Origin: Candidatus Woesebacteria bacterium RIFCSPHIGHO2_01_FULL_39_32
GTDB taxonomy: Bacteria; Patescibacteriota; Microgenomatia; UBA8517
Length of the DNA: 64,000 nucleotides
Assembly: GCA_001792345.1 (NCBI GenBank)
Contig: MGGJ01000001.1
Coordinates: 153,710-217,709, forward strand
Direction of reading: 5' to 3'
Shown: one piece after another, positions 1,480 to 52,200 of the stretch
Numbering within the stretch: position 1 is the stretch's first letter
Layout of the letters: each line of letters opens with the position of its first letter
Notes under the pieces: model-generated
Seen by the model: only the letters and a program-made list of their open reading frames with translations
Databases searched by the model: none
What the model was told of the DNA's origin: nothing
Position numbers and translations under genes: made by a program

Positions 1480-3027
1480 ATGAAATCGAAATACTATTTG
1501 TATCTTATTCTTCTGCTGTCACTTTTGGGGTTGGCTGATTCGTGGTATCTGACGCTGGAGCATTATGGGAAGATTATTGTTCCTTGCTCTACCGCTATTT
1601 TGGTTGATTGCGGAAAGGTTTTAAGAAGTAAATATTCGGAAGTTTTGGGGATTCCTTTGGCACTAATCGGTGTTTTTCATTATGGTCTTTTCAGTTTAGT
1701 CAATTTTTATAACGTTATTAAAAAAGATAAGCAGATTCGAGTAATTGCGATTATATTCAGCACAATTGGTACATTATCTTCTATTGTTTTTATGTATTTG
1801 CAATTTTTTGTTATTGGTTCGATCTGCCTTTACTGTACTCTTTCTGCGATCATTAGTTTTACTTTACTTTATTTAACGTATCGATTTTTCGAAGATGAAA
1901 GAAAGTTTTTGTTTATTAAGTTAACCGGGTATAAGTATCGGTATATTTTGAAAAAGATTTTGTTTCTGTTTGATGCGGAGTTTGTTCACGAAAAGACAAT
2001 TGGTTTCGGAAAATTTGTTGGTAAAAACCGATTATTAAGAAATATTTTTAGTTATTTCTACGACTACAGGAGTACTTCTTTAAAACAAAAAGTATTGGGT
2101 ATAAATTTTGAGAGCCCGATAGGTTTAGCAGCTGGATTTGATTACGATGCTAATCTGACACAATTTTTGCCATCACTTGGCTTCGGATTTATGAGCGTGG
2201 GCACGATTACGAACATGCCTTATGCGGGGAATCCCGCACCACGTTTGGGACGTTTACCAAAATCAAAATCACTTCTGGTTAATAAAGGCTTTAAAAATGA
2301 AGGTGCAGATGTTATTGCTGACAAGATTAAGAACCAGAATTTTGAAATTCCGGTAGGTATAAGTATAGGAAGAACGAATTCATCTGAACTGGACTCTCAA
2401 AAGAAAAGTATAGATGATATAATCTCAGCTTTTAAAAAATTCGAAAGTACCAAAATTAAAAATTCTTATTATGAATTAAACATAAGTTGCCCGAATTTGA
2501 TCCACCAAGGAGAAGTGGTCTTTGATGAACCGAAAAAACTTGACGAACTATTGGTTAAAGTAGATAGTTTAAAACTTAAAAAGCCTGTTTTTCTCAAAAT
2601 GCCTATCGATAAATCCGATCAGGAAACTTTAGAGCTTCTAAAAATTATTTCTACGCATTCGCCTAAAGGTGTTATATTTGGTAATCTTCAAAAGGATAAA
2701 AAACACCCGTCACTTCATTTGGATGAAGTAGCTAAATTTGAGAAGGGTTATTACAGCGGTAAGCCTACTTATCAAAGATCAAATGAATTAATAAAACTTG
2801 CATATAAAAACTTTAAAAATAGATTAGTCATAATAGGTTGCGGTGGAGTTTTTTCAGCGGAAGACGCTTACACAAAAATAAAACTGGGAGCATCTTTGGT
2901 GCAGCTTATCACAGGCCTAGTATACAATGGTCCTCAGCTGGTTGCAGAAATAAATTTTGGACTAGTAGATTTACTTAAAAAAGACGGATACAAAAATATT
3001 TCCCAAGCTATTGGAGTTGACAACTAG
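1480..3027 (+). CDS. pyrD: fusion: N-terminal VKOR-family thiol-quinone oxidoreductase membrane domain + dihydroorotate dehydrogenase (quinone-type fold)
   Basis: The N-terminal ~135 aa form TM helices with a loop Cys pair (VPCSTAILVDCGKV) and a GIPLALIG motif. An intramembrane CXXC (ICLYC) completes the VKOR hallmarks. Residues ~200-515 match class-2 DHODH blocks: PIGLAAGFDYD, GTITNMPYAGNPAPRLGRLP, NISCPN, IIGCGGVFSAEDAYTKIKLGASLVQLITGLVYNGP. Confidence 0.75.
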   Translation: MKSKYYLYLILLLSLLGLADSWYLTLEHYGKIIVPCSTAILVDCGKVLRSKYSEVLGIPLALIGVFHYGLFSLVNFYNVIKKDKQIRVIAIIFSTIGTLSSIVFMYLQFFVIGSICLYCTLSAIISFTLLYLTYRFFEDERKFLFIKLTGYKYRYILKKILFLFDAEFVHEKTIGFGKFVGKNRLLRNIFSYFYDYRSTSLKQKVLGINFESPIGLAAGFDYDANLTQFLPSLGFGFMSVGTITNMPYAGNPAPRLGRLPKSKSLLVNKGFKNEGADVIADKIKNQNFEIPVGISIGRTNSSELDSQKKSIDDIISAFKKFESTKIKNSYYELNISCPNLIHQGEVVFDEPKKLDELLVKVDSLKLKKPVFLKMPIDKSDQETLELLKIISTHSPKGVIFGNLQKDKKHPSLHLDEVAKFEKGYYSGKPTYQRSNELIKLAYKNFKNRLVIIGCGGVFSAEDAYTKIKLGASLVQLITGLVYNGPQLVAEINFGLVDLLKKDGYKNISQAIGVDN

Positions 3028-3048: not shown

Positions 3049-3513
3049 ATGGACAACAAAGACAAAGAGAAATTAGAGAAATTCTTAAACGCAAATAATT
3101 TAATGACACTTGCTACAGCAAACCCTAAACCTTGGGTTGCGACGGTTTATTATGCTTTCGATAAAGGTTTTAACCTCTACTTTGTCAGCTCACCCAATTC
3201 CAAACACTCCCACGATATTGAAAAAAATAAAAACGTAGCGATTGCTATTTATGACTCACACACAAAAAACTCCGAAAGTAAAACAGGGTTACAATTACAG
3301 GGAGTAGCATCTCGAATTAAAGGTTGGGATATGACCACTAAGATGCTCAAGATCTGGCACAAATCAGCTCCAGGAATGGAAGATATAGTTAATATTAAGA
3401 ATATGAAAGCTAAAGTTATAAGTTCCAGAGTTTACAAAATTACACCTACAATAATTAAGTTTTTTAATCAGGATCTTTACGGCGAAGAAGGGTACAGGGT
3501 ATTTAAGTTATGA
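3049..3513 (+). CDS. pyridoxamine 5'-phosphate oxidase-like FMN-binding protein (general stress protein 26-like)
   Basis: 154 aa with a NLMTLATANPKPWVATVYYAFD...NVAIAIYD pattern typical of the PNPOx-like split-barrel family. Confidence 0.5.
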   Translation: MDNKDKEKLEKFLNANNLMTLATANPKPWVATVYYAFDKGFNLYFVSSPNSKHSHDIEKNKNVAIAIYDSHTKNSESKTGLQLQGVASRIKGWDMTTKMLKIWHKSAPGMEDIVNIKNMKAKVISSRVYKITPTIIKFFNQDLYGEEGYRVFKL

Positions 3514-4247
3514 ATTTAAAAGAGAAAGTTGTTGTTATTACGGGTGCGACGGGGGGAATTGGAAGCGAACTTTCGAAGGCATTCTCCCAAAAAGGCGCAC
3601 GCCTAGTCCTTATCTCGAGGAACGAGGACAAATTAAAAGACCTTATTACAAAACTTGATGGGAGCAGGCATGAGTATATCATCTACGATTTCCGTAATCA
3701 GGATAATTTCGAGGAACTGATAAAAGAACTTCGCGATAAAGCTGACAACATTGACGTTTTGATAAATAACGCAGGAATTGGAGTTTACAAATCTTTAGAG
3801 GAAGCAGAAGAAAAAGATTGGGCAGACTCGATTAATATAAATGCAACTTTCCCCTTTCTTCTAACAAAAAAACTTCTGCCAATTTTACAAAAATCAGAAA
3901 AAGGGATCGTCCTAAATGTTGGCTCGGGTATGGGTAAAATTCCTTCGGCGGGAAGAAGTGTCTACTGCGCTTCAAAGTTTGCACTAAGAGGGTTATCATT
4001 GTCGTTGTCAAAGGAATATAAAGGAACAAATATCCACTTTGTTTTAGTAACTTTAGGAAGCACTCTAACAGACTTTGGACCAATGACCCTAAAAGAAAAG
4101 CAGGAAGAAAGTCTAAAAGGTAAAGCCTATTTTACCCCCGAATGGGTGGCCAAGAAATTTGTAGAATTAATTGAAAAAGATGAGTTTGAAGATGAGATAG
4201 AGTTGTATCCATCCGAATACACCGGAAAAGAATGGCGCGCATCATGA
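3510..4247 (+). CDS. short-chain dehydrogenase/reductase (classical SDR)
   Basis: TGATGGIGSEL Rossmann motif, NNAG, and a YCASK catalytic Tyr/Lys. Its start overlaps the upstream stop. Confidence 0.75.
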   Translation: MNLKEKVVVITGATGGIGSELSKAFSQKGARLVLISRNEDKLKDLITKLDGSRHEYIIYDFRNQDNFEELIKELRDKADNIDVLINNAGIGVYKSLEEAEEKDWADSININATFPFLLTKKLLPILQKSEKGIVLNVGSGMGKIPSAGRSVYCASKFALRGLSLSLSKEYKGTNIHFVLVTLGSTLTDFGPMTLKEKQEESLKGKAYFTPEWVAKKFVELIEKDEFEDEIELYPSEYTGKEWRAS

Positions 4248-4819
4248 AGTTAATTGATTTAATAAAAACACGACGAAGTATACGTAAATGGAAAATTGAT
4301 CCTATTTCATCAGAAATTATCAAAGACTTAGTCGCAGCGGGAAAAAGTGCACCATCTTCGCACGGGTCTAATCCTGTAGAACTAATTGTTGTTGATGATA
4401 TTCAACTTACTGAACAACTCCTGTCTGACAGACTTCAACTTAAAAAACCACCTCACTATATAAATTCTAGAAAGTGGGCTAAAAAAGGAGGTTTAGAGAA
4501 TTACGAGAAGGTTTCTCCTCCGCCTCTACTTGTTGTTGTTTGTGGAGATCAAAATAAATGTGAAGATTTGTCAAGCCTTCTAATAGACATGTCGGTATCA
4601 ACTGAAAATATACTCCTTACGGCTCACGGTTTAGGTTTGGGAGGTTGTTGGCTTTATGTTTATGATGAAAGCATGCCCGAAACTGAGGAGAATGTTAAAA
4701 ACTATCTTAACATTCCAAAAAATATCAGAGTTCTGTCGCTTATTGCCTTAGGTTATCCCAATGAAAAACCCACACCAGATAATAAAGATGTAAAATCTTT
4801 CCATCAAAATAAATGGTAA
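4232..4819 (+). CDS. nitroreductase-family protein
   Basis: N-terminal IKTRRSIRKW motif plus C-terminal features of the nitroreductase fold. 195 aa. Confidence 0.55.
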   Translation: MARIMKLIDLIKTRRSIRKWKIDPISSEIIKDLVAAGKSAPSSHGSNPVELIVVDDIQLTEQLLSDRLQLKKPPHYINSRKWAKKGGLENYEKVSPPPLLVVVCGDQNKCEDLSSLLIDMSVSTENILLTAHGLGLGGCWLYVYDESMPETEENVKNYLNIPKNIRVLSLIALGYPNEKPTPDNKDVKSFHQNKW

Positions 4820-5262
4820 AAATACAAGGTCTTCACGAAAATTTTATGCGGGCTGCCTTGAAAGAAGCGATTTTTTCTAAGCGGAAGGGAGAATGGGTTG
4901 GGGGCGCAGTTTTGATTCGAGGCGGGAAAATAATCGCTAAAGCACAAAATACAGTTCAATTATCAAAAGATCCAACAGCCCACTCAGAAATTAATGTAAT
5001 CAGAAAGGCTTGCAGAAAGTTAAATACTACAGATCTAGAAGGAACGGATTTATACACAAATGCTGAACCGTGCCCCATGTGTATGTCTGCCTGTATCTGG
5101 TCAAATATAAGAAATGTTTACTATGGTGCAAGTCTCAAGGACTTAATGAAACTTGGAGATTTTCAAATTAAGATATTTAATTCAGATATTGTGAAAAAGT
5201 CATTTCGAAAAGTTGGTATTAAGGGTGGTATTCTAAGAGAGGAAAGTTTAAAACTTTTATGA
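4813..5262 (+). CDS. CMP/dCMP-type zinc deaminase, TadA/guanine-deaminase-like
   Basis: Zinc ligand motifs HSE(INVIR) and PCPMCMSAC. Size of 149 aa is typical of tRNA adenosine deaminase. Confidence 0.6.
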   Translation: MVKIQGLHENFMRAALKEAIFSKRKGEWVGGAVLIRGGKIIAKAQNTVQLSKDPTAHSEINVIRKACRKLNTTDLEGTDLYTNAEPCPMCMSACIWSNIRNVYYGASLKDLMKLGDFQIKIFNSDIVKKSFRKVGIKGGILREESLKLL

Positions 5263-6708: not shown

Positions 6709-7257
6709 ATGAAAAACGCACTGATTTTGCACGGAATTATGGGTAGAGCTGGAGGGAATTGGATGCAATGGTTACATGATGAACTAACTAAAAGAAGTTA
6801 TAAAGTTTTGATGCCACAACTACCAAATCCTGATCATCCTGATCGTAATGGGTGGCTCGGGTTTTTGAAGAATATAACGAAGGATATCGATTTTTTACAA
6901 CTAACCATTGTAGGACATTCTTTAGGTGTTACATCTGCATTGGATTTAATCGAATCTGAAAATAAGGTATTAAAATTGCTAATTTCAGTATCTGGGTTTT
7001 CAAAGCCGTATGGACTAGAACTAAATGAATATTTTTTAAAAATAAAGAAAATAGATATGAAAAAGGCAGGAAGTTTAATTAAGAAAGTTGTTGTAATACA
7101 TAGCGACAACGACCCTTATGTAGCACAGTGGGCTCTCAAGGATTTGGCAGATAGTTTTGGAGTTGATCCTATTATTATTAAAAATGGTGGGCATATTAAT
7201 TCGGATGCTGGTTTTACTAAATTCCCATTACTTCTTGAATTGTTGAAAGAAAAATGA
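6709..7257 (+). CDS. alpha/beta-hydrolase, YdeN/RBBP9-like serine hydrolase
   Basis: 182 aa with LILHGIMG near the N-terminus, a nucleophile elbow GHSLG, and a C-terminal His. Confidence 0.55.
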   Translation: MKNALILHGIMGRAGGNWMQWLHDELTKRSYKVLMPQLPNPDHPDRNGWLGFLKNITKDIDFLQLTIVGHSLGVTSALDLIESENKVLKLLISVSGFSKPYGLELNEYFLKIKKIDMKKAGSLIKKVVVIHSDNDPYVAQWALKDLADSFGVDPIIIKNGGHINSDAGFTKFPLLLELLKEK

Positions 7258-7772
7258 GTAAAAATGAACTTTTGGATTTGGTGAATGAGAAAGATGAAGT
7301 GATTGGAACCGTTTGGAAAAGCGAAGCACATAAAGACCCCACAAAAATTCACAGAGAAGTAGCAATTGCAGTCTTTAACGAAAAAGGTGAAGTTTTACTT
7401 CAGCAACGTAGTATGAAAAAACTAACCGGCCGTGGTGAGTGGAAGATAACAGCTGCAGGTCATGTTGGAAGAGGTGAAGATCCCCAGAAAGCTGTTGTGC
7501 GTGAAGCAGAAGAAGAACTGGGATTAAAAATAGTACCGAAGTATTTTGGTAAGAAGTTTGTTATCCGCGGAGATAAAGAGGCTAGGTTTTTTTGGATATA
7601 TTACTCGATAGTAAAAAATCATCCATCATTAAAATTAGACGAAGATGAAGTTATGGATGCGAGATGGGTAAAATTGGATAAGTTAGAAGAATTTGCAATC
7701 AAAAACGATTACGACTTACTAGGTAATTCGCACAAAATAATTGTAGAATTAAAAAAGAAATTAAAATTATGA
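7254..7772 (+). CDS. Nudix hydrolase
   Basis: Nudix box GHVGRGEDPQKAVVREAEEELGL (GX5EX7REUXEEXGU). Confidence 0.7.
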   Translation: MSKNELLDLVNEKDEVIGTVWKSEAHKDPTKIHREVAIAVFNEKGEVLLQQRSMKKLTGRGEWKITAAGHVGRGEDPQKAVVREAEEELGLKIVPKYFGKKFVIRGDKEARFFWIYYSIVKNHPSLKLDEDEVMDARWVKLDKLEEFAIKNDYDLLGNSHKIIVELKKKLKL

Positions 7773-12396: not shown

Positions 12397-13192
12397 AGAA
12401 AAACTTGTATCGGTTATCATCCCGGCCTACAAAGCCGAGAAGACTATTGAAAAAAGCTTAATTAAAACAAAGAAAGTTTTAGATGCTATACGTTATAACT
12501 ACGAAATAATTTGTATCGATGACGGGAATACCGACAAAACCCGAGTCAATGCTGAAAAAGTCGCAAAAAAATTTCCCGATAAAATTAAAATTGTTGGATA
12601 CCTTACCAATTTAGGTAAAGGACACGCTGTTCGATTCGGAATGGCTCAGGCGGAGGGCGATATAATTGGTTTTATTGATGCTGGTCTTGACGTTGATCCA
12701 AATGGAATATCCATGTTACTTGAACATTTTGAGTGGTATGGTGCAGACATAATTATTGGCTCTAAAAGACATCCCGCCTCAAAATTAGAATATTCCTGGC
12801 AAAGAAAAATTGTATCAATTGGATATCAGATATTGGTAAGAACCCTTTTTGGAGTTAAAGTGAGAGACACGCAGGTTGGTCTGAAATTCTTCAAGAGAGA
12901 AGTTTTAGAGAAGGTTCTTCCCAGAATTCTGGTTAAAGAGTTTGCTTTCGATATTGAAATTCTATCAGTTGCGTACTACCTTGGCTTTAAAAGGATTTTT
13001 GAGGCACCAGTTGAGTTGAAAATGGAATTTGGGGGCTCCACAATTATCAGTAAAGGATTTATTAGAACAGTTTTTAAAACGCTTTGGGATACAGTGGCAG
13101 TTTATTACAGACTTAGAATTCTTCACTATTATGATGATAAAAACAATAAAAATTGGATAACTCCCGATTATCTTACTCTCAAAAGTAAATGA
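12359..13192 (+). CDS. glycosyltransferase family 2 (Dpm1/polyprenyl-phosphate sugar synthase-like)
   Basis: VSVIIPAYKAEKTI...IDDGNTDKT, plus a DAG (IDAGLDVD) motif. The true start may be the second Met (MKRK). Confidence 0.7.
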   Translation: MHMKRKTQAAENREKLVSVIIPAYKAEKTIEKSLIKTKKVLDAIRYNYEIICIDDGNTDKTRVNAEKVAKKFPDKIKIVGYLTNLGKGHAVRFGMAQAEGDIIGFIDAGLDVDPNGISMLLEHFEWYGADIIIGSKRHPASKLEYSWQRKIVSIGYQILVRTLFGVKVRDTQVGLKFFKREVLEKVLPRILVKEFAFDIEILSVAYYLGFKRIFEAPVELKMEFGGSTIISKGFIRTVFKTLWDTVAVYYRLRILHYYDDKNNKNWITPDYLTLKSK

Positions 13193-15213
13193 AACAGTTT
13201 TCCATCCTCAGTTTCTTGATTTTCTTCATTTTATTATTTCCTGAAAAATGTTTTGCAGATGAGGATAATCAATTCATCACAATTGTAAATCCGGTTAGAA
13301 TATCACGTTACACTACTAATTCTTCTGAGAGTATTCTCTCTCAATATTCGGTGATAAAAGAATTAGATTTAGCAGCTACCTGGTTACTTACATATGATGT
13401 TTTAATTAATAATGGATCTGTTACGGCAATTAAGGATTTTGATGAAAATCAGGAAATCGGTCTTTTCCTGGAAATTTCTTCTGAATTTGCTGAGGAATCT
13501 GAGGTTATTTATAACGATACAGGGAGTTGGCACTATGCTCCTTCAGTTTTTCTCTCCGGGTACAAACAGGAAGAAAGGGTAAAACTAGTTGATACTCTTT
13601 TTGAGAAGTTTAAAGAAACATTTGGGCATTATCCAACCTCGGTCGGAGGGTGGTGGATCGATTCGTTCTCATTGGAATACATGAAGCAAAAATATGGAAT
13701 AACTGCAAATTTAGGACTTTCCGATCAGTTTTCAACAGACGGATATCAAGTTTGGGGAACATTTTGGTCAACCCCCTTTTATCCATCTAACTATCATGCA
13801 GGAATTCCTGCTGTTGAAGAATCAGTCAAACTTGATGTCGTGACTTTACAATGGGCGCCTCGGGATCCTTTAAATGGTTACTTCAATAGTTATTACAGCA
13901 CTCAAGATTATCTCCAAAATCCTGTGAATCAAGACACGTCGTACTTTGAAAAGTTAGTTCGCCTGTATGCCAAAAAGAATGAGAATGCATTTGGACAGAT
14001 TGTTGTCGGGCTAGAATCAGATTTATCTCCTGAGGCTTATAAAGGAGAATTTGCAAAACAGATGGAAGTTGTTAAGAGATTAGGAAATTCGGATGATCTA
14101 CAAGTTTTGACAATGAGTGAATTTAGTAATTGGTATAGGCTTACATTTCCTAATCTATCACCCACTCAAGTTGTGGAGACAGATGATCTTCTGGGAAAGC
14201 CTATAAAAGTAATTTGGTATCAAACGCCTAAGTTACGTATAGGATTAACTTATAACTACGAAACTTTCGAAACAAAAATCTTCGATTTCCGCGGTTATCA
14301 TTCAAATTTTCAAGAATCATATTATGTAACTCCGAACAAAGAGCGGGAACTTTCTATCTACATCCCTTCCTACTTTGATGAAATAAATAATACAGATGAT
14401 GTTTGGAGTATAAGTTTAGGAAAACTTACGGAAAGCAAAAGAAATGACCAAGAACTGAATATGGTTTTTACTAAGGGTGAAATAATTTTTGGTCGAGATA
14501 AATTCCTAATTAAAGGGTCAAATGAAGTGCCTAATATTTTGGCTAAAAATCCAAATCTCATGGTCCGTAAAAAATTAACCGGTATTGAAATTTCTCCTAA
14601 AGACGCTTGGGTTATTGATCGTAACGGATATGTTTTCAAAGATTTAACGGATATTGCTACAAGAGAACTGATGCGGAAAAGAACCCTCGGGTTGGTTTTG
14701 GTTTTTACGAGCCTTTTTCTTAGTTTGGGTTTTGGTGTAATTCTTTCAAAGATTTCTCAAAGAAAAAAACTCCTAGTCTTAAGCTTCATGATAATTCCAC
14801 CTACTTTATTTATCAACAATTGGTACCAGAAAAACACTATGAATTATTATGTAAGTCAGGCAGAAATTGACGCGCTTTTAAATCTTTCTACAAAACCACC
14901 AGGCAAAGTTCTTGTGTACGGAAGGGAATGTTTAGGTTGCGAATGGGCTACACCTCAAAAGCCAGCCGTTTTCTCGAACAAAAGAAGTTATGTTCAAAGA
15001 TGGGGAAAACACCCCATTGTTTATAATTCAAGCGTTTTTGAAGCCCAAAACCAGCAAGTCGCAAGGCGAAAATTTGATGAACTGAATGCATCTTACATTT
15101 ATATTACAAAATATGGGGATTATGTTGAAAAAGTACCTTTTTCCCCAGGAGACCTTAATATAGAAAAATTGTATGATAATGCTAACGCCGAAATCTGGAA
15201 GGTAAAAGAATGA
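13189..15213 (+). CDS. exported/membrane-anchored hypothetical protein
   Basis: 674 aa with an N-terminal signal-like segment (MKQFSILSFLIFFILLFPEKCFA) and a large soluble domain. A single TM lies near residue 510 (LGLVLVFTSLFLSLGFGVIL). Confidence 0.45.
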   Translation: MKQFSILSFLIFFILLFPEKCFADEDNQFITIVNPVRISRYTTNSSESILSQYSVIKELDLAATWLLTYDVLINNGSVTAIKDFDENQEIGLFLEISSEFAEESEVIYNDTGSWHYAPSVFLSGYKQEERVKLVDTLFEKFKETFGHYPTSVGGWWIDSFSLEYMKQKYGITANLGLSDQFSTDGYQVWGTFWSTPFYPSNYHAGIPAVEESVKLDVVTLQWAPRDPLNGYFNSYYSTQDYLQNPVNQDTSYFEKLVRLYAKKNENAFGQIVVGLESDLSPEAYKGEFAKQMEVVKRLGNSDDLQVLTMSEFSNWYRLTFPNLSPTQVVETDDLLGKPIKVIWYQTPKLRIGLTYNYETFETKIFDFRGYHSNFQESYYVTPNKERELSIYIPSYFDEINNTDDVWSISLGKLTESKRNDQELNMVFTKGEIIFGRDKFLIKGSNEVPNILAKNPNLMVRKKLTGIEISPKDAWVIDRNGYVFKDLTDIATRELMRKRTLGLVLVFTSLFLSLGFGVILSKISQRKKLLVLSFMIIPPTLFINNWYQKNTMNYYVSQAEIDALLNLSTKPPGKVLVYGRECLGCEWATPQKPAVFSNKRSYVQRWGKHPIVYNSSVFEAQNQQVARRKFDELNASYIYITKYGDYVEKVPFSPGDLNIEKLYDNANAEIWKVKE

Positions 15214-28027: not shown

Positions 28028-29965
28028 ATGTTTTTGGGAAAAAATATAAATGTCAAGTTATTTTTATTTGTGACTTTCGCAGTTACAGTAATTAATTTAA
28101 TAATCCTTCAACCAGTAATTAAATATCAATTAATCGAACTTGCAGATGATTGGATATGGATGGTTTATTACAAATCCTTGTCCCATATGCCTCTTCTAGC
28201 TAAACTTTGGTATATCTGGAAAAAGGTTGGTATTCATGAGAGTGGTTATGCTATATACGTGGGACTTTTAGGGGAGATTCTTGGTATGAATTACCAGGCA
28301 TATAACTACGTGAATATTTTTTTTAAAATACTTTCTGCGGTAACGCTCTTTCCTCTGATCTTAATTGTTTTTAAAAATAGATTATTGGCTACTATTACTA
28401 CTTTTATCTATGGAATTACTTCGGCCTCCACAGGATCTTTGTACTGGATGATGAAAGGAGGAATGTATCTGGGAATTACTTTTATGAATTTATTTTTGTT
28501 ATCCTACTATTTTGCTGTTACAAAGAAAAAAATCTTTTGGCTAATACTTTCCTCGATACTAATATTTATAACGTACATTAGTTCGGCAGTAAGAGTTTAT
28601 CCGGTTTTTCCGATTATTATATTAATAGAAACTATTTGGCTTATTTTTAATCGTTCAAAAGGGGATGGCAAATTCTTACAAATAAAAGTACGTGAGTTAA
28701 AAACTTCAATAATACGAATTGTTGCCTTTTTCCTACCAGTGTTCTTGGTAGCATCACGAGCCCCAGTTTCTCCTCACGGCTTTATCGGAAGGAAAACCGT
28801 AATGCTTTTAACTGACATCAAAAACGGAAATTTACACGATTTGCTTTCTCCTCTTGCTGGAATTGGATCTTCATTTTTACCTAATTATTTTTGGAAATAT
28901 TTTGGAGATATAAACCCGAAAACTTTTGCAAGCTTCGGTAATTATTTAATTTTTCTTTTCAAACGACCACTTCCAATATTCTTTTTAGCCACTATTATTC
29001 TTTCGAGATTAATTTCCAAAAGGCCTAAAAGATTTATTGTTATTGTATTAATTCTTAATTTTATTTTTGAACTTATGTTGTTTCCTATTACTACTTACCA
29101 TTTTAGTATTCCGAAAGAGTTAGTGTTTGAATACGATAGTGTTATTTTCTACTTTATTAAATACCCTACACTAATGGCTGTGTACGTACTTAGCGTTGCT
29201 ATCGCGAGTTTTTTTGAAATGAGGTTTGATGCGAAAAATAAATTACTGTTGACTTTATGGGTAGGTCCTTTATTTTCGGCTATATTTATGTTGTCGATGT
29301 GGATACTAATTGGGTTTCTGGTTAATGCGTATAGTAGCACTGGATATTATTTCGCCATACCCGCAATAGGAATGTCGCTTTTTACATCCTCAATTCTTGT
29401 ATTAATGTATGAAAGATCCAAAGATAGAAAATTATTTAATCTGATACCTCTTGTTGTTATCATTGGGTTCTTAATTTCATTTTATAAAACAAGTAAACTT
29501 GAAATTCACAGAGATTTTACAAGCGATAATCCCGGAAAGATTACAATTCAAGACGTGAATATTTTGCATAGTAATTTATTGGAAGATTTGGGAGACGCCT
29601 CTAAGTCTGGTAATATATTGATATATTTTGAAATTCCTAACGCTACAGCTTCCGGTAATCTGAGACTGGGACTTTTAGGTTTCCCTCAGATGGTTGTTTG
29701 GCAGCGAAACAATGAAGGTATTGGATGTGTGGATTCGTTAACAGATAAAGAAAAACTTCAAATGGCATTTCGATCTGATACGCAGAAACAGGGATTTAAT
29801 TCAAAAGGAGAGTGTGTGTTTAAGACGTCGGTCCCAACAATCAACGAATATGCCGATAAAGAAAATATTTTTTATACAACCAACGATTTTTATGCTTACA
29901 GATTTGATGGTTTAACCCCCATTGATATTCGTGGCGAAGTTCTTGCAGAATTGGCGAATAAATAA
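28028..29965 (+). CDS. large polytopic membrane protein, putative GT-C-fold glycosyltransferase
   Basis: 645 aa with 12 or more TM helices and a C-terminal soluble domain of ~150 aa. Context. Confidence 0.4.
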   Translation: MFLGKNINVKLFLFVTFAVTVINLIILQPVIKYQLIELADDWIWMVYYKSLSHMPLLAKLWYIWKKVGIHESGYAIYVGLLGEILGMNYQAYNYVNIFFKILSAVTLFPLILIVFKNRLLATITTFIYGITSASTGSLYWMMKGGMYLGITFMNLFLLSYYFAVTKKKIFWLILSSILIFITYISSAVRVYPVFPIIILIETIWLIFNRSKGDGKFLQIKVRELKTSIIRIVAFFLPVFLVASRAPVSPHGFIGRKTVMLLTDIKNGNLHDLLSPLAGIGSSFLPNYFWKYFGDINPKTFASFGNYLIFLFKRPLPIFFLATIILSRLISKRPKRFIVIVLILNFIFELMLFPITTYHFSIPKELVFEYDSVIFYFIKYPTLMAVYVLSVAIASFFEMRFDAKNKLLLTLWVGPLFSAIFMLSMWILIGFLVNAYSSTGYYFAIPAIGMSLFTSSILVLMYERSKDRKLFNLIPLVVIIGFLISFYKTSKLEIHRDFTSDNPGKITIQDVNILHSNLLEDLGDASKSGNILIYFEIPNATASGNLRLGLLGFPQMVVWQRNNEGIGCVDSLTDKEKLQMAFRSDTQKQGFNSKGECVFKTSVPTINEYADKENIFYTTNDFYAYRFDGLTPIDIRGEVLAELANK

Positions 29966-35653: not shown

Positions 35654-36037
35654 ATGAGAATATGTATAGACTTAGATGGGGTAATTTGTGAAGTAAGGAG
35701 GAAGAATCAATCATACGAGGATGTAAAACCCTTACCAGGAGCAATCGAAAAAATTCAAGAATTAAAAAGTAAAGGTCACTATATTATTATTTCTACCTCT
35801 CGGCACATGAAGACTACAGACGGCAATGTAAATAAAATATTAGCAAAAGTAGGAGAAATAACACTTACTTGGTTAAGAAAACATAAGATTCCATTTGACG
35901 AGATAAATTTTGGTAAACCTTACGCTCATATTTATATCGATGATAAAGCTGTTCGCTTTAGTGGATGGAAAAAAATAAGAGGAGATGGGGGTAACCTCCC
36001 TCTTAAAAAGGAAGATAAAGAGTTTAAAGTCAAATGA
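35654..36037 (+). CDS. HAD-superfamily-like small phosphatase
   Basis: Begins MRICIDLDGVIC (DxDG motif). 127 aa, downstream Lys and YIDD (motif IV-like). Confidence 0.4.
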   Translation: MRICIDLDGVICEVRRKNQSYEDVKPLPGAIEKIQELKSKGHYIIISTSRHMKTTDGNVNKILAKVGEITLTWLRKHKIPFDEINFGKPYAHIYIDDKAVRFSGWKKIRGDGGNLPLKKEDKEFKVK

Positions 36038-37797
36038 TAGTCGTAGGTTTTTACAAAGGACACAACGCGACAGCCTGTGTTCTTAAAGACGGAAAGATAT
36101 TAGCTAGCGCCAGCGAGGAACGTTTTGTACGGATAAAAAACGTTGATACTTTCCCAACGAACTCAATTAAATTTTGCCTCGATTTTATAGGCGCAAAAGT
36201 TGCCGATGTTGATCTTTTTGTTAGAACCTACAAACACGCTGAAGGCTTTGTTACTTCTAAGGGTAAAACAGTAATGACAAAACCACTAGAGTATCAAAGA
36301 TGGCTTGCAAAAACCTTTGATCGGTTACTCTTTTACTTACCGAGTTTAAATTCACTGACCAGAGAGACATATGCATACTTCTCAAAATTTCTTTTGACTC
36401 CTTACTATCAATCGAAATTTAGAACCAATATGGCCAACTTCCTGAAAGTGGATCCCCAAAAAATTATATTTGCAGATCATCACTCGTGCCACGCATATGC
36501 TCCGTATTATGGATTTATTACTAATGAAGAAAAGAAACAAGATTATTTAGTGATTACACTAGACGGGGAAGGAGACGAAGACTGCGGTGGCATTTGGCTT
36601 GTAAAATCCGGTAAGTGGGAAAAAATTGCAACTGTATCATATGGTGATTCTATCGCGGCATTTTACGGTTACATTACAAGTTACTTGGGAATGAAAATAA
36701 ATGAACACGAATATAAGGTTATGGGGTTAGCCCCTTATGTTTCCGAATACGAAATTAAAAAAGTATATCCAATATTTAAAGACCTTTTTTGGATAGATGA
36801 TAATCTTGTAATGCACTCAAAGATTCATTCCGGATCTTACCCCTATTATTTGGAGAAATATCTTAGGGGAATGCGTTTTGATGGCATTGCCGGCGCAGCA
36901 CAATTATTAGCAGAAAATGTTGCAATAGACCTTGTTAAAAAGGCAATACGAAAAACCGGTATCAAAAACATTATACTTTCCGGAGGGTTTTTCATGAATG
37001 TAAAGGTAAATCAAAAAATTGCGAAACTTTCAGAAGTAAAAAGATTGTTTGTCTGTCCATCAGCATCTGATGAATCGAGTGTATTCGGTGCTGCATATTT
37101 TGGCTTCAAATATCTTTGCAAAGAGAAAGGAATAAATTTCAGACCTGAAACCCTCGACAATTTATATCTTGGTCCTAATTTTGAAGACAAAGGATTGAAA
37201 AAGGCAATGATTAAAGCAAAGATATCAAAAAAATATAAAATTAATAAATATAAAAATATAGAAAAAGTTATCGCTGATCTTTTGGCTGAAGGTAAAATTG
37301 TCGGACGATTTACAGGACGTATGGAATGGGGAGCAAGAGCTTTAGGAAATAGATCAATTCTGATGGACCCGAGAAGTAAAGATAAAATTCGTGAACTTAA
37401 CGATCAGGTTAAATCAAGAGACTTTTGGATGCCTTTTGCAGCAACAATCATAGATGAATATAAAACCAAATATCTTAGAAATACTGATAAATCTGATGGT
37501 AGATTTATGGTAATGGCCTATGATACAACGGACCTTGGTAAGAAGAATTTAAGCGCGGCGATTCATCCATATGATGAGACTTGTAGACCGCAAATATTAA
37601 GTAGAATCGACAATCCTAAATACTATAAACTGATAAAATATTTTCAGGGCAAAACTGGCGTTGGTGCAGTTCTTAATACATCGTTCAATTACCATGGAGA
37701 ACCAATTGTTTGTACGCCGGACGATGCACTACATACATTTGAAGTTACAGGTTTAAAATATTTAGCATTGGAAAATTGCTTAATTGCCAAAGAATAA
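36034..37797 (+). CDS. NodU/CmcH-family carbamoyltransferase
   Basis: N-terminal ILGFYKGHNATACVLKDGKILASASEERFVRIKN is the ASKHA-like Carbam_trans_N signature. 587 aa, with a C-terminal YrdC/Kae1-like region. Confidence 0.75.
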   Translation: MIVVGFYKGHNATACVLKDGKILASASEERFVRIKNVDTFPTNSIKFCLDFIGAKVADVDLFVRTYKHAEGFVTSKGKTVMTKPLEYQRWLAKTFDRLLFYLPSLNSLTRETYAYFSKFLLTPYYQSKFRTNMANFLKVDPQKIIFADHHSCHAYAPYYGFITNEEKKQDYLVITLDGEGDEDCGGIWLVKSGKWEKIATVSYGDSIAAFYGYITSYLGMKINEHEYKVMGLAPYVSEYEIKKVYPIFKDLFWIDDNLVMHSKIHSGSYPYYLEKYLRGMRFDGIAGAAQLLAENVAIDLVKKAIRKTGIKNIILSGGFFMNVKVNQKIAKLSEVKRLFVCPSASDESSVFGAAYFGFKYLCKEKGINFRPETLDNLYLGPNFEDKGLKKAMIKAKISKKYKINKYKNIEKVIADLLAEGKIVGRFTGRMEWGARALGNRSILMDPRSKDKIRELNDQVKSRDFWMPFAATIIDEYKTKYLRNTDKSDGRFMVMAYDTTDLGKKNLSAAIHPYDETCRPQILSRIDNPKYYKLIKYFQGKTGVGAVLNTSFNYHGEPIVCTPDDALHTFEVTGLKYLALENCLIAKE

Positions 37798-41051: not shown

Positions 41052-42303
41052 TATAAAACAAATCCGTATCTTTGCTCTAGCTGCTTATGGAAAAGGACTT
41101 TCTGGGGGAGATAGGATTTTTATTGAATTTGCCAGACGTTGGAGTAAAAATTTTCCTGTGGAAATTTATGTTTGGAAAGAAGGAGCCAAAATGTTGGAAA
41201 GACAACATCTGGGTATTTTCAATTCACAATTTTCACTTTTTAATGCAAATAAAGATTACCGAAATTTAAAAGTTCACGTTTCGAAATTAAAAAACCTATG
41301 TAAATTAGGATTCTTATTTTGCTACCTTACCAGAATTATTGAAGGAATTCGTTTAGGACTTTCTTTAAAACTAATCACCAATCACCAATCACCAATTACT
41401 ATATACTCTGCATCAGAATTTTGGATGGATTCACTCCCCGCTTTCATATTAAAACTCAGATATCCGAAGATAACTTGGGCCGCATCGTGGTATCAAACTG
41501 CTCCCAACCCATTTCATGGATATTTAGAAAATGGACAACGTAGAAATAAATATTTTTTTAGCAGTCTCTTCTATTGGCTAATGCAACTACCGATAAAGCC
41601 GCTTATTTCAAGCTTTGCTGACTATGTTTTAGTAAATAACGAGGAAGAACGAAAGCAATTTTCCGATTTGAACAAAAAGGGTAGAATGATAGTGGTTTTG
41701 GGCGCGGTTCCACTTGAAGAAATTAATAAATTTTTAATTACTAATTCCAAACTATTAACTACTAAAGAATATGACGCTGTCTTTCAAGGACGCTTACACG
41801 CGCAAAAGGGAGTGGTTGAATTAATCGACATTTGGAAAAAAGTGGTTGAGATAAAACCGTTAGCAAAATTGGCGATGATTGGAGATGGTCCCTTGATGGG
41901 AAAGGTAAAGAAACGAATAACTATGAATAAACTAACTAATAACATTAAAGTTTTTGGGTATGTTTTCGACGGGCCCAAAAAATATAAAATATTTTCCAAA
42001 AGTAAGATTGTCGTGCATCCCGCATTTTATGATTCAGGTGGAATGGCATCTGCAGAAGCAATGGCTTTTGGATTACCATGCGTCGGCTTTAACTTAAAAG
42101 CGTATAAATCTTATTATCCTCAGGGTATGGTTAAGGTAGATATTGGAAACACAAATGCTTTTGCAAAAAAAATAATGGAATTATTAGAAAATTATTCTTT
42201 GCGTATAAAAATAGGTAGAGAAGCTAAGTACATGATAGAAGAAAACTGGTCGTGGGAAAAAAGAGCTAACGAAGTTTTGGAACGAATAACTACAAATAAA
42301 TGA
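41044..42303 (+). CDS. glycosyltransferase family 4-like
   Basis: C-terminal HPAFYDSGGMASAEAMAFGLPCVGFN. Contains a 3x heptanucleotide repeat at 41374..41394. Confidence 0.6.
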   Translation: MFDIKQIRIFALAAYGKGLSGGDRIFIEFARRWSKNFPVEIYVWKEGAKMLERQHLGIFNSQFSLFNANKDYRNLKVHVSKLKNLCKLGFLFCYLTRIIEGIRLGLSLKLITNHQSPITIYSASEFWMDSLPAFILKLRYPKITWAASWYQTAPNPFHGYLENGQRRNKYFFSSLFYWLMQLPIKPLISSFADYVLVNNEEERKQFSDLNKKGRMIVVLGAVPLEEINKFLITNSKLLTTKEYDAVFQGRLHAQKGVVELIDIWKKVVEIKPLAKLAMIGDGPLMGKVKKRITMNKLTNNIKVFGYVFDGPKKYKIFSKSKIVVHPAFYDSGGMASAEAMAFGLPCVGFNLKAYKSYYPQGMVKVDIGNTNAFAKKIMELLENYSLRIKIGREAKYMIEENWSWEKRANEVLERITTNK

Positions 42304-43250
42304 GACGAATAAAACATTTTGTATCTATTACTGATTTAACTAAAAAAGAAATTAATCTTGTCCTTCAAATTTCCTCAAGTCTCAAAAGACAATTAAAGAA
42401 AAAAGGGAGCAACAAAGATTATTTAAAAAATAAAGTATTGGGAATGATTTTTGAAAAACCATCTCTGCGTACAAGAGTTTCATTTGAGGCAGGAATGACT
42501 CAAATGGGAGGACATGCAATTTATCTTGCGCCCGGGGATATTGATTTGGGTAAAAGAGAGCCTGTGAAAGATGTTTCTCAGGTTTTATCAAGGATGGTTG
42601 ATATTATTATGGCTCGAACTTTTCTTCATACTACCATAGAAGAGCTAGCTAAGTATTCAAGTGTTCCTGTTATTAATGCTTTGTCGGAACAAGAGCATCC
42701 TTGTCAGATTTTAGCTGATTTATTAACTATAAAAGAAAAGAAAGGAAAATTAAAAGGTATTAAGTTAGCATTTGTTGGTGATGGCGAAAATAATGTAACT
42801 CATTCTTTAGCTTTAGCCTCAGCAATTTTTGGAATGGATTTTCGGGTAGCAACACCTCCTGGTTTTGAAATGCAAAGCATCATTTTAGAAAAGGCAAAAG
42901 CAATTGCAAGTAAGAGCGGTGGACTAATTATAGAGACAGATAAACCCGAAGAAGCTGTAAAAGGAGTCGACATTGTCTACACAGATACATGGGTTTCTAT
43001 GGGTGATGAGTCTGAGAAAGACAAGCGTATAAAAGCTTTTAAAGGATATCAAGTAAACACTAGATTGATGAATTTTGCAAAAAAGGATGCAATATTTATG
43101 CATGATATGCCTGCCTATAGGGGTTATGAGGTTAGTGAAGAAGTTATTGAAGGAAAGCAATCTATAATAATCAATCAAGCAGAGAATAGACTACATGTTC
43201 AGAAGGGTTTGATTTGTTTTCTCCTACGTACTACCATCAATACATCATGA
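42300..43250 (+). CDS. divergent ornithine/aspartate carbamoyltransferase-family protein (OTCase-like fold)
   Basis: Collinear with OTCase: PSLRTRVSFE (canonical STRTR), HPCQ (HPTQ), DTWVSMG (DxxxSMG), FMHDMPA (canonical HCLP). 316 aa, translationally coupled inside the GT cluster. Confidence 0.65.
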   Translation: MRRIKHFVSITDLTKKEINLVLQISSSLKRQLKKKGSNKDYLKNKVLGMIFEKPSLRTRVSFEAGMTQMGGHAIYLAPGDIDLGKREPVKDVSQVLSRMVDIIMARTFLHTTIEELAKYSSVPVINALSEQEHPCQILADLLTIKEKKGKLKGIKLAFVGDGENNVTHSLALASAIFGMDFRVATPPGFEMQSIILEKAKAIASKSGGLIIETDKPEEAVKGVDIVYTDTWVSMGDESEKDKRIKAFKGYQVNTRLMNFAKKDAIFMHDMPAYRGYEVSEEVIEGKQSIIINQAENRLHVQKGLICFLLRTTINTS

Positions 43251-48527: not shown

Positions 48528-49220
48528 ATGTATATGTTGAAATCAAAAAAATCATCACCTGGCACAAATTTTAATCATTACCTATTTACTCTGAAATTAT
48601 GGCTAGACTCACGCGTTGAACCAATATGTAGAGTTATCGATAAATCGGCCGAAAGTATTTTAGACGTAGGTTGTGGTCAAGGTTATCCGATGAGGCTCAT
48701 CAGATTAGTAATGGAACCGAAGAAAGTTGTAGGAGTTGACCTTTTTAACGAATATATTGAAGAAGCAAAATCCGCGCATTTACATGATAAGTATGTCATA
48801 TCAGATATTCGGAAGTTGAAATTTCCAAAAAAAAGTTTCGATGTCGTTCTTGCATCGCAAGTTATTGAACACTTGCCTAAAAAGGATGCAAGAAAATTTA
48901 TTAAAGATTTAGAGCGGATTGCAAAAAAGCAAGTAATTATTGCAACACCAATAGGGGAGATGTATCATCCTGCGGTAGATGATAATGAATTGCAACTTCA
49001 TTTATCAAATTACTATCCTGAATATTTTGAAAAGTTAGGATACAGGATTCTAAAATATGGTAGAAAATCTTTATTGGGGGACCACGGATTAGTTCATAAA
49101 ATTCCTAATGGGATATTGAGAAAATGCCTTTTTCTTTTCAATATTCTTATAAGTCCTTTCTATTATGTCTTCCAACCGATTGCGGATTATTATTTTGTGG
49201 CCTACAAGACGTTTAAATAA
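48528..49220 (+). CDS. class-I SAM-dependent methyltransferase
   Basis: ILDVGCGQGYPMRL; DVVLASQVIEHL; IIATP. Confidence 0.65.
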   Translation: MYMLKSKKSSPGTNFNHYLFTLKLWLDSRVEPICRVIDKSAESILDVGCGQGYPMRLIRLVMEPKKVVGVDLFNEYIEEAKSAHLHDKYVISDIRKLKFPKKSFDVVLASQVIEHLPKKDARKFIKDLERIAKKQVIIATPIGEMYHPAVDDNELQLHLSNYYPEYFEKLGYRILKYGRKSLLGDHGLVHKIPNGILRKCLFLFNILISPFYYVFQPIADYYFVAYKTFK

Positions 49221-49251
49221 ATTATTTTACCCATTTAGTAAATTCAAATAT

Positions 49252-52200
49252 ATGAATAAAAAAATATTTATTTTACTTTTACTGTCCTCAGTATTGTTGA
49301 CTACAATTTTGTTTAAAGACAAGACCATATTAGGCGGAGGGGAATCGGGAGTTCCGTTTTATAACATCACAAGGATGTTTAAAGATAGTTCCAGTTCGTG
49401 GCTGGATGGACTTCTTGGAAGTTACATACCTCAATCTGTTGCCAATTATCCATACTTAAAAATTTTCAGCTTCCTCGAGGTACAAGGTATTAATGGGTAT
49501 GTTTTGCAAGCACTATTTACATTTATTGCACTTTTAATATCTCTCGTCTTTTTCTTCCTTCTTACAAAAGAAGTATTTTCAAATTATCCAAATAGCGCTT
49601 ATTTATTTTCATCCTTCTTCTATTTATTCAATTTCTACAGTGCAATGAATATTTGGAATAGATTCTTACTGAATTTTCTTCTTTTCTATTCGGTCCTACC
49701 TATGTTTTTGTGGCTTTACATGAGGTTTTTAAGGAGCAGGAACTTTGTATATTTAGGTTTATTCTTGATGCTTTCATTTATTTTTTCTTACGCCTTTTCG
49801 TCTCCTGGTCACATTATGATTTTCTGGTTTTTATTGTTATTCATTAGCTTATTTGAGTTGATGAAAGACAAAAAAAAGGTAGCTCAGGTTAAAAATTTTG
49901 TTATTACTTTAATGTTATGGCTTTTGGTTAATTTTTGGTGGATTTTACAGCAAGCCGCATATGCTATTTCGGAATCATTTAAGTCAATAAGTACGGAGTA
50001 TTTTTCTGACGTAGGAAATACTATTGGCTTCAGTTTTTTAAGTAATGTCTTGGGTAAATTTGAGAATCTATATCTTTTGAAACATGGTTTATTTTATAAC
50101 CAAGAATATGACTTTATTCTTAAATGGCCGCTTATTTACAAAAAACCACTGCTTTTGATCGTTGAGTGGATGGCGAGTCTTTATATACTTTACTGGGCTA
50201 TTAACAACAGAAAGAGATTGTCCGTCGTATTTAGTTTGGGCCTGTTACTTATTGGCTTCATACTGGCGAAAGGGAATTCCCCGCCTCTGGGAGAAGTATT
50301 TGACTTTTTTTTCCAGCGCTTTTCATTTGTACAGTTTTTTCGAAATCCATTTGAAAAATTGGGGATAATTCCGACGATGGGTTTCTCCCTGATGATTGGA
50401 CCATCGTTGTCCGATTTGGCCAAAAAGTTAAGCCGTCAAAAACCATTTTTGAGGGTTTTTATTCCACTAGTTTCGTTTACATATATAGTTGTTATTTTGG
50501 GTTTTCCTTTTTGGAGCGGCCTAGTATTTACTGGAAGCCAAGCGCCACTTAATGATCCTGAAGTAGGGCTGCGGGTGGAGGTACCATCTTATTATAAGGA
50601 TGCAGACAATTGGCTGTCTCTAGAGGACAAGGATACAAGATTTATGACATTTCCATTAGGTGGCGAAGGTATCCAATATCTTTGGCCAAAGGGTTATTTG
50701 GGAGTTGAGGAATCGGCGATTCTTTTCGAGAATGCTAATATTTCAAGTGTTTTGGCCTTTCCGTATTACGATAAAATTGCGTCAAATCTTCAAAAACTAT
50801 TTACAAAAAACATAGATTTTTACAAAATTGCCTCACTTCTAAATGCAAGATATTTACTTTTCAGGCCGGACATAGAATTTAAAAATTCAGGCATGAAAGA
50901 CCCCGCATATATAGATAATTTGTTCGAAGAAAGAGTCAGTAACGAAAAAGCAAATATTTCTTTTGCATCGCAGTTTGGTCCGCTAAAGTTTTATAAGTTA
51001 GATAATAAAGTTACTTTACCGAAGATTTATGCTGCTAATAATTACGTTAATGGAGGTTCTGGCGCCGACATTGAACAGTTTTTGCTCTCGGGCGCTGAAG
51101 TTGGGGATGTTATGTACAATTCCGGGTGGCCCGTGAGAAATAAACTCGATGCTAATACGTCTTTTTATGTTTCAAAGAATAAAGCCATATTTTATCTTCC
51201 AGGACCTCAATACCCGCTATTTGTTGATGCGCCTTACATTTTTCCTTATGTTTCACACTTACCAAGCTCACCGATATATTCGTTGTTGATCATTAAAGAA
51301 AATCTTCAAAGAAATTTATATTCAGATAAAGAAAGTAAGCTTAGATGGGATTTATTGACTTTAGGGAAACGACTAATTGAGGTCAGAAACGCTCTTTCGG
51401 CCGGAGACGAGAAAGGTGCTATTAAATCCCTACAAATTTACAGAAAAAATTTAGCTAGTGTTGTTTCCGACATAGATCTGGTTTCGAAATCGTTAAAAAA
51501 ACCCGGAGAGCAGGTTTGGAACGAAAAAATGCTTACAGAAATTTTTAGCAGTCATCTTTTTCTTTTTAACGATTTTGAAAAAAGTACATTAAATAGCGAT
51601 GGCAGTATTACGGACCTGAAAAAACAACTCTTATTATCCGTTTCCAAATTGAAAATATTACCATATTACTATCCAATAGTTAGCGAAGATTTTCCTTTAG
51701 AGAGCAGAGTAGTCTATGGAGTAGAAATAGACTCCTCGGGGGAATATGACGTAATTTTCCCAAAATCAATATTCTTTCCTGAATACTTTGGTATTAATCA
51801 ACGTATTAATATACAGATCGACGACGTAGTATATTCAACGCAAATAGGAATAGATAATAATAAGGTGTATTTTGGTAAATATTATTTATCGGAGGGCTAT
51901 CATGAAATTTCTTTCAACCAGTTTTCGAAAATAAATTTAATCGACGAAAATTTAACTAGCTTTGAATTAAATTCTATCCATGGCGAAGACTCTATAAATA
52001 TCCCAATAAAAACTTACGATGCATATTCTCAATACGAAATATCATTTGACTACCTCATTCATTACGGGAATGGCCCAGTCCTACAGGTGAGTTTAAATAA
52101 CGATAAGATTATCAAGAAAGATGGAGTTGAGACAGAACAGTATTATTTTGAAAAGTATCTTCCCCCTGATGATTATTATTTTATAAAAAGACCTTATTCG

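Follow-up and report, generated by a model that had tools for sequence, protein, structure and literature searches.

The stretch of DNA analysed here, referred to below as the window, comprises 64,000 nucleotides of contig MGGJ01000001.1 (positions 153,710 to 217,709; assembly GCA_001792345.1) of Candidatus Woesebacteria bacterium RIFCSPHIGHO2_01_FULL_39_32. Near its start, at positions 1480–3027 on the forward strand, lies a gene whose product joins a VKOR (vitamin K epoxide reductase) domain to a dihydroorotate dehydrogenase (DHODH). This is a new domain architecture assembled from two well-known enzymes. The fusion is apparently undescribed; none of the papers found in full-text searches, including two surveys of the VKOR family, mentions it. 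The literature searches likewise gave no pyrimidine or quinone data specific to Woesebacteria or Roizmanbacteria. In public databases such proteins are annotated as quinone-dependent DHODH, and some entries bear the name "dihydroorotate dehydrogenase 2, nonfunctional".

The fusion gene and its product

The open reading frame is uninterrupted, with 515 codons, a stop codon and zero internal stops, and encodes a complete protein of 515 amino acids. Pfam assigns residues 9–133 to VKOR (PF07884, E = 4.8e-27) and residues 201–498 to DHO_dh (PF01180, E = 6.9e-53). Taken together, the Pfam and NCBIfam matches, alignments to known enzymes and a structural model give the domain order as a VKOR domain with four transmembrane (TM) helices, a charged amphipathic linker and a complete class-2 DHODH.

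Such a gene could be an artefact in which adjacent vkor and pyrD genes were merged by a sequencing frameshift or a missed stop. The identical protein (P0001, Candidatus Woesebacteria bacterium RIFCSPHIGHO2_01_FULL...) is, however, on record on at least 24 contigs, with records from ENA, NCBI, JGI and Logan. All 120 of its best database relatives, which are 53–73% identical to it and come from Woesebacteria, Roizmanbacteria and other Microgenomates, have the two Pfam domains together in a single protein about 515 residues long, and an exhaustive search among 50%-identity representatives brought in some fragments and about 11 more clusters of full-length fusions, with identities as low as 40%. 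An AlphaFold2 model built on the alignment of the 120 proteins (pLDDT 94.1, pTM 0.91) shows the junction between the two domains as a continuous, confidently modelled helix. The shared architecture of the relatives and the repeated identical records effectively exclude a frameshift artefact, and we regard this explanation as practically out of the question. The in-frame fusion proposed in a preliminary description of this DNA is therefore genuine, and the database search that the description had called for returned the same fusion many times over.

In the alignment of the 120 fused homologues, C36, C44, C116, C119, H170, R258, N334, S336, C337, N339, K373 and N402 are invariant. That redox and catalytic residues of both domains are among them suggests that both active sites are under purifying selection. 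The motifs named from the sequence at the outset are likewise in place, namely the loop with C36 and C44, GIPLALIG at residues 57–64, CLYC at 116–119 and NISCPN at 334–339.

The class-2 DHODH module

The C-terminal 360 residues are identified by NCBIfam as a quinone-dependent (class-2) DHODH of the PyrD type, EC 1.3.5.2. They score above the curated cut-offs of two equivalog models for this class (NF003652, 288.5 against 267; TIGR01036, 249.6 against 200), and they miss those of the class-1 models (TIGR01037, 83 against 270; NF002702, 64 against 301). The barrel, which binds flavin mononucleotide (FMN) and has the (beta/alpha)8 fold, occupies residues 201–515 (positions 2080–3024; this and all other features of the gene are on the forward strand) and is supported by PF01180, Foldseek and NCBIfam.

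It had been thought that the VKOR domain takes the place of the N-terminal helices that form the quinone tunnel of class-2 enzymes, but these helices are present. The NCBIfam class-2 profiles match from their positions 3–10, corresponding to query residues of about 153–156; residues 2–40 of E. coli PyrD (taken from the MG1655 record) align to residues 153–200 of the fusion, and the Helicobacter pylori enzyme (6b8s) aligns from residue 13. The N-terminal helical domain can thus be placed at residues 153–200 (positions 1936–2079), where the fusion has a signature in common with E. coli (F162..D165.E167..H170 and F11..D14.E16..H19, respectively). His170, the equivalent of E. coli His19, and Arg258, the equivalent of Arg102, are invariant in the fused family, and both positions are conserved in nearly all sampled unfused enzymes, whether these have Cys or Ser at the catalytic-base position. 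In class-2 structures, these two residues line the quinone and inhibitor tunnel. Upstream of this domain, the linker (residues 138–152, positions 1891–1935) carries a net positive charge and forms one helix with the first DHODH helix; the model has helices at residues 138–161, 166–182 and 184–194 before the barrel. Foldseek comparison of the model with the full-length class-2 structures 6b8s and 8ofw gave target-normalised TM-scores of 0.92–0.94. An electron path from dihydroorotate via FMN to a quinone bound in the VKOR domain, as previously suggested, presupposed that the DHODH had lost its own tunnel, and so it no longer has this foundation.

The module therefore shares with the class-2 PyrD proteins of E. 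coli (1f76), H. pylori (6b8s) and Mycobacterium tuberculosis (8ofw) the FMN barrel and the N-terminal quinone-tunnel domain, as well as the equivalents of His19, Arg102, Asn172, Asn177, Lys217 and Asn246. Whereas those enzymes are peripheral to the membrane, the fusion is an integral membrane protein by virtue of the preceding four-TM VKOR domain. Class-1A DHODHs, which are soluble and fumarate-dependent, have no N-terminal membrane or quinone domain, unlike the fusion.

The catalytic loop and active-site substitutions

The catalytic loop NISCPN spans residues 334–339 (positions 2479–2496). As the preliminary description had stated, a Cys is found at the position of the catalytic base: Cys337 (positions 2488–2490) falls on Ser175 of E. 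coli PyrD, the class-2 base, to which Ser215 of the human enzyme corresponds, and on the second Ser of the corresponding NLSSPN loop of H. pylori DHODH (6b8s). It is followed by Leu340 at the position of Thr178, so that the textbook class-2 Ser base and Thr178 proton relay are both absent.

This Cys is not a peculiarity of the fusion, as had been assumed, but the usual residue in a large class-2 clade, many members of which are unfused. Nearly all of the 150 best 50%-identity representatives read NxSCPN, among them about 95 unfused proteins of 350–390 residues, and enzymes with Ser surface among these representatives only at about 35–38% identity. In the residue table, 95–99 unfused relatives have Cys at the base position. 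Named unfused members of the clade belong to Patescibacteria, Woesearchaeota, Pacearchaeota, Levybacteria, Paceibacterota and Saccharibacteria. When a distant unfused Cys-type member was used as the query, all 118 proteins obtained read N[IVL]SCPN, and the named ones, which are annotated as quinone-dependent DHODH, come from Rhodothermales, Balneolaceae (Rhodohalobacter mucosus, Gracilimonas, Halalkalibaculum), Salinibacter, other Bacteroidota and Deltaproteobacteria. A scan of GTDB yielded mostly class-1 enzymes, the pattern ELNISCPN being common to class 1 as well. Rhodothermales, Balneolaceae and Salinibacter contain quinone, and a Cys at this position is therefore compatible with quinone use.

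The Cys by itself does not point to a thiol-based electron acceptor, as had been suggested, given that the same residue occurs in 118 of 118 relatives, the named ones being quinone-annotated enzymes of ordinary bacteria. Direct contact between VKOR thiols and the flavin is also geometrically implausible, since the membrane separates the VKOR CxxC, on its outer face, from the cytoplasmic FMN. On the evidence of these sequences, Ser defines the textbook class-2 enzymes and not the class-2 clade as a whole.

Fungal class-II enzymes that work without respiration also have Cys at the base position; it is essential for the anaerobic function of SjUra9, and is neither necessary nor sufficient in others (PMC8520639). 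The Ura9 enzymes of Schizosaccharomyces japonicus, Dekkera bruxellensis and the Neocallimastigomycetes thus combine a class-2 scaffold with a base Cys and have no VKOR domain, and their independence of respiration matches the fermentative lifestyle reported for the candidate phyla radiation (CPR), to which the Microgenomates belong. The Neocallimastigomycete enzymes have lost the N-terminal domain (PMC8520639), whereas the fusion retains it.

Further departures from class-2 enzymes surround the active site. In E. coli numbering, and in a sample of 51 fused proteins, Ser175 is replaced by Cys in all, Lys66 by Tyr in 49, Asn139 by Ser in 50, Thr178 by Leu or Ile in 45 (41 and 4, respectively), Thr247 by Leu in 48 and Tyr318 by Ile in 48. 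In the protein studied here, Tyr222 (positions 2143–2145), within AAGFDY, stands where class-2 enzymes have Lys (Lys66 in E. coli, Lys100 in human). Human Lys100 and Tyr356 are listed among active-site residues in a secondary source (PMC12197698). The fused proteins keep H19, R102, N172, S174, P176, N177, K217 and N246, and there is little or no variation at the pyrimidine-binding Asn residues (N172, N177, N246 and the Asn at 111/112) or at Lys217.

Many unfused relatives from CPR and DPANN show the same changes. Tyr is found at the Lys66 position in 20 of 95 unfused Cys-type relatives, and Lys is kept there in 10 of 11 Ser-type enzymes. Unfused Cys-type enzymes of CPR/DPANN, Rhodothermales, Balneolaceae and Salinibacter have the same scaffold and base Cys as the fusion and lack VKOR, and those of the Bacteroidota type keep Lys66 and Thr178 (GFDK and NISCPNT), unlike the fusion. 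Class-1A enzymes resemble the fusion in having a Cys base followed by a hydrophobic residue (C337 and L340 in the fusion). The class-1 sequences from the loci that we fetched share with it only C175 and a hydrophobic residue (Val) at 178, and have N139 and T247 as in class 2. At these residues, the CPR/DPANN clade that holds the fusion thus departs from both DHODH classes around flavin and substrate.

The VKOR module and membrane topology

The VKOR domain covers residues 1–137 (positions 1480–1890). According to PF07884 and the model, with which hydropathy agrees, its TM helices lie at residues 5–30, 60–81, 84–112 and 117–136. The domain aligns to the Synechococcus VKOR structures 4nv2 and 3kp9 (E of about 1e-5) with the loop cysteines and the CxxC in register. 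The loop pair C36...C44 (VPCSTAILVDC, positions 1585–1611) is extracytoplasmic, and the redox-active CLYC (C116-x-x-C119, positions 1825–1836), at the outer end of TM4, pairs with CMYC of 4nv2; a motif scan detected CxxC in 119 of the 120 relatives. Conservation of at least 90% among the 120 homologues extends to Ser50 of the loop and to other VKOR residues. The module therefore has the features of its family, that is, a four-TM core, a loop Cys pair, a loop Ser or Thr, and a CxxC opening TM4.

Net charges across the family are +1.7 at the N-terminus, +2.7 in the TM2–TM3 loop and +3.0 in the segment after TM4; the 31-residue loop with the cysteines is near neutral (about 0.5), and the TM3–TM4 turn has three residues. 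By the positive-inside rule, this pattern places both termini inside, the VKOR cysteines outside and the DHODH domain in the cytoplasm, which bears out the cytoplasmic location expected for the latter. The predicted arrangement is that of bacterial VKORs, whose active site faces outward, and of class-2 DHODHs. The TM count is still even in P0131, a divergent member of the fused family with two extra TM helices. It also follows from the topology that the VKOR and DHODH quinone sites lie in opposite leaflets.

Synechococcus VKOR (3kp9, 4nv2) likewise has a core of four helices, a Cys pair and a Ser in the loop, and an intramembrane CxxC. There, the partner is a periplasmic thioredoxin-like domain that follows a fifth TM helix, while the partner in the fusion is a cytoplasmic flavoenzyme that follows TM4. 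In Actinomyces oris, VKOR re-oxidises MdbA. Partners resembling MdbA commonly accompany VKOR in CPR (PMC6744442). Neither the window nor the flanks of the other fused loci have an annotated gene for a thioredoxin-fold partner or a second VKOR; in CPR, MdbA-like proteins are often encoded elsewhere in the genome (PMC6744442).

Evolution of the fusion

Neighbour-joining trees of the DHODH domain place the core fused group, which is of the Woesebacteria/Roizmanbacteria type, inside a set of unfused Cys-type enzymes. Support for most deep nodes is weak in 100 bootstraps, and the number of fusion events can therefore not be counted from these trees. Fused and unfused proteins are mixed at two nodes with 100% support, one joining P0128 with P0132 and another joining P0129 with the core group and also holding P0127 and P0130. 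We found no VKOR gene within 10 kb of the unfused relatives, indicating that these are not split versions of the fusion.

In 107 of 114 fused proteins, the CxxC and the tunnel His170 are spaced 51 residues apart, despite a poorly conserved linker sequence; divergent fused members have spacings of 43, 44, 58 or 100 residues. The same Cys-type DHODH is also found joined to other domains. In P0141 it has an N-terminal PAP2 phosphatase domain, in P0241 an N-terminal 5-TM domain that is of unknown type and unrelated to VKOR, and in P0139 a C-terminal cytidylyltransferase-like domain. VKOR is the recurrent partner, with about 11 full-length clusters at 50% identity as against single examples of the other fusions.

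Genomic neighbourhood

Directly upstream of the fusion gene, at positions 635–1318 on the reverse strand, is a gene for a Y1 transposase (IS200/RAYT-like, PF01797). The 160-bp gap before the fusion contains a 23-nt GC-rich perfect palindrome, GGCCAGGCCTTGCAAGGCCTGGC, at positions 1338–1360, which is present as a single copy in the window and which, with the transposase, looks like a REP/RAYT-type pair. The palindrome is probably context and not part of the enzyme's function.

Downstream, 21 nt lie between the fusion and the next genes, and this interval contains no terminator-like site. At positions 3049–5262 on the forward strand, four packed or overlapping genes encode a PNPOx-like FMN-binding protein, a short-chain dehydrogenase/reductase (SDR), a nitroreductase-fold protein and a CDA-fold deaminase, and they may be transcribed as a single unit of small redox and flavin enzymes. 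Of these genes, the PNPOx-like and SDR ones turn up near the fusion again in two related genomes (L088 and L089) and not in two others (L005 and L006). In three Roizmanbacteria-like genomes, genes for small NUDIX hydrolases abut the fusion on one or both sides (L006, 9582–10004; L009, 1980–2393 and 4075–4485; L010, 7274–7687 and 10105–10515); these gave only generic NudI/MutT-like matches, below curated cut-offs. Synteny as a clue to function was set aside, as nine fused neighbourhoods have no conserved thioredoxin-fold, pyr or quinone genes.

The window is mostly a glycosylation cluster. Within about 50 kb of glycosyltransferase and polysaccharide genes lies an ornithine carbamoyltransferase gene (42300–43250, forward strand; ArgF-type, 424 bits against a cut-off of 306), with a NodU-like carbamoyltransferase gene (36034–37797, forward strand) nearby. 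The ArgF-type gene is oddly placed for the arginine pathway and may relate to carbamoylation of glycans. The carbamoyltransferases of the window and of L010 were considered as pyr genes and rejected, both being of the ornithine type. Four large forward-strand reading frames of the cluster (49165–52788, 53286–56090, 13189–15213 and 28028–29965, encoding 1207, 934, 674 and 645 amino acids, respectively) match no Pfam family at E <= 0.001 or lack a precomputed hit. Positions 7254–7772, also on the forward strand, encode a NUDIX protein that matches isopentenyl-diphosphate isomerase type 1 best, at 92.8 bits and so short of the cut-off of 127; should the match be genuine, the protein would bear on isoprenoid, and hence quinone-tail, metabolism.

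Proposed function

The reading that we favour, at a probability of roughly 45%, is that the fusion is a two-input quinone reductase on one membrane anchor, in which both modules work as their families do. On the DHODH side, the enzyme would use FMN, and Cys337 as base, to oxidise dihydroorotate to orotate, and the two electrons would be handed to a lipophilic quinone that comes in by the N-terminal tunnel still present. On the VKOR side, electrons from a putative exported thioredoxin-fold oxidoreductase of the MdbA/DsbA-like kind would pass through C36/C44 to C116/C119, from where VKOR would likewise reduce membrane quinone. The VKOR domain would at the same time give the DHODH a permanent transmembrane anchor, and both modules would draw on the same local quinone, which is probably scarce and scavenged. 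Homology of each module to its family suggests that both are quinone reducers, and the strict conservation of both active sites and of the DHODH tunnel makes this the best-supported reading; the identities of the domains, the predicted topology and the persistence of the fusion are in keeping with it. The fusions of the same type of DHODH to PAP2 and 5-TM domains may also speak for a pressure towards anchoring.

Several points weigh against this proposal. CPR genomes are reported to be without quinone biosynthesis and without quinol-oxidising or respiratory complexes (PMC5113843, PMC8407418), and two quinone reducers without a known oxidiser make an incomplete scheme. Parallel reduction of quinone by itself also fails to explain why the fusion has been retained when close relatives are unfused. 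No gene for a partner oxidoreductase, a second VKOR, pyrimidine synthesis or quinone synthesis was found in the window or beside the fusion in nine other genomes. Lastly, the substitutions K66Y, N139S, T178L, T247L and Y318I mean that the specificity for substrate or acceptor may differ from that of known class-2 enzymes.

The missing electron sink and the persistence of the fusion keep alive another model, which we consider unlikely but worth setting out, in which the two modules are coupled within the molecule through a shared or captive quinone, the quinol of one serving as the substrate of the other, with no need for a respiratory chain. Electrons could run from the thiols of exported proteins through VKOR and quinone to the DHODH tunnel, FMN and, at the Cys-type active site, a soluble acceptor such as fumarate, so that the DHODH module would be a terminal reductase for oxidative folding. 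Anaerobic oxidative folding in E. coli, according to work by Bader and Bardwell, reportedly takes such a route from DsbB through menaquinone to fumarate reductase. That route is a conceptual model for thiol oxidation via quinone to a cytoplasm-facing flavoprotein reductase; its components are distinct proteins, with quinone in a free pool and a respiratory enzyme dedicated to the task, whereas the putative coupling in the fusion would take place within one polypeptide. Electrons could also run the other way, from dihydroorotate through FMN and quinone to a reversed VKOR, with extracytoplasmic disulfides as the sink for pyrimidine synthesis. Dihydroorotate (about -0.26 V) could, by textbook potentials, reduce DsbA-type disulfides (about -0.12 V) overall, which counts in favour of coupling, but by the same potentials each direction includes a strongly uphill step, from quinol to a low-potential FMN in the former and from quinol to a disulfide in the latter, and we know of no precedent for VKOR working in reverse.

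The single-body model with its high pTM and the fixed spacing between CxxC and His170 fit a defined arrangement of the two modules, and all redox residues of both are invariant, which counts for coupling; the opposite leaflets of the two quinone sites tell against it. The catalytic loop, with its Cys and the hydrophobic residue at 178, is as in the fetched class-1 enzymes, and class-1A enzymes reduce fumarate at the same site. Yet unfused sister enzymes show the same active-site changes without a VKOR gene within 10 kb. It also favours coupling that quinone serves both modules as co-substrate and that they stay fused in bacteria reported to be without a quinol oxidiser (PMC5113843), as do the fungal Cys-type class-II enzymes, which serve respiration-independent pyrimidine synthesis, and adaptive fumarase mutations in fungi, which hint at the use of fumarate (PMC8520639). 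On balance, it seems rather improbable that quinone shuttles between the VKOR site and the DHODH tunnel and so couples external thiol/disulfide chemistry to the DHODH flavin in either direction; if it does, the shuttle would let bacteria without a respiratory chain run two "quinone-dependent" reactions.

Two further explanations separate the modules more sharply. VKOR might have been recruited mainly as a TM anchor for the DHODH, the activities being functionally unrelated and VKOR having an ordinary housekeeping role or minor importance. The joining of the same DHODH clade to unrelated membrane domains in P0141 and P0241, the interleaving of fused and unfused forms within clades of 100% bootstrap support, and gene neighbourhoods that are unconserved and give no functional link all speak for this. 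A mere anchor would, however, have no need of the four cysteines that are invariant in 120 homologues, nor of Ser50 and the other VKOR residues conserved in at least 90%, and the repeated choice of VKOR over other membrane partners also counts against it; we find a pure anchoring role improbable. More doubtful still is the possibility that the flavoenzyme only resembles DHODH and acts on another substrate or acceptor, such as a dihydropyrimidine or an enoate, in the service of VKOR-linked redox chemistry and not of pyrimidine synthesis. T247L and N139S replace residues conserved in both DHODH classes, K66Y and Y318I add to these, and the label "nonfunctional" on some database entries points the same way. 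With E. coli PyrB, PyrC, PyrE and PyrF as queries, which may be too distant to recognise CPR pyr genes, none was found near the fused and unfused CPR/DPANN loci examined, as against 18 of 63 class-1 control loci. Many CPR are moreover reported to be without de novo nucleotide synthesis (PMC5113843). Against a change of substrate stand scores that exceed both quinone-dependent DHODH equivalog cut-offs and the near-complete conservation of the pyrimidine-binding Asn residues and Lys217. The two-input quinone reductase remains the reading that we prefer.

Conclusion

A Cys at the base position is common in the class-2 DHODHs of several bacterial and archaeal groups, which corrects a textbook simplification and bears both on the assignment of DHODH classes from sequence and on the interpretation of the fungal class-II enzymes that are active anaerobically. 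VKOR and class-2 DHODH are both regarded as tied to a pool of respiratory quinone. Both are nevertheless found in CPR bacteria, and the Microgenomates, a large lineage among these, keep them joined in one protein. That both are kept, and joined, in a lineage reported to lack quinone synthesis hints at a shared solution to the disposal of electrons, and the fusion marks an unexplained redox physiology in bacteria without respiratory chains.

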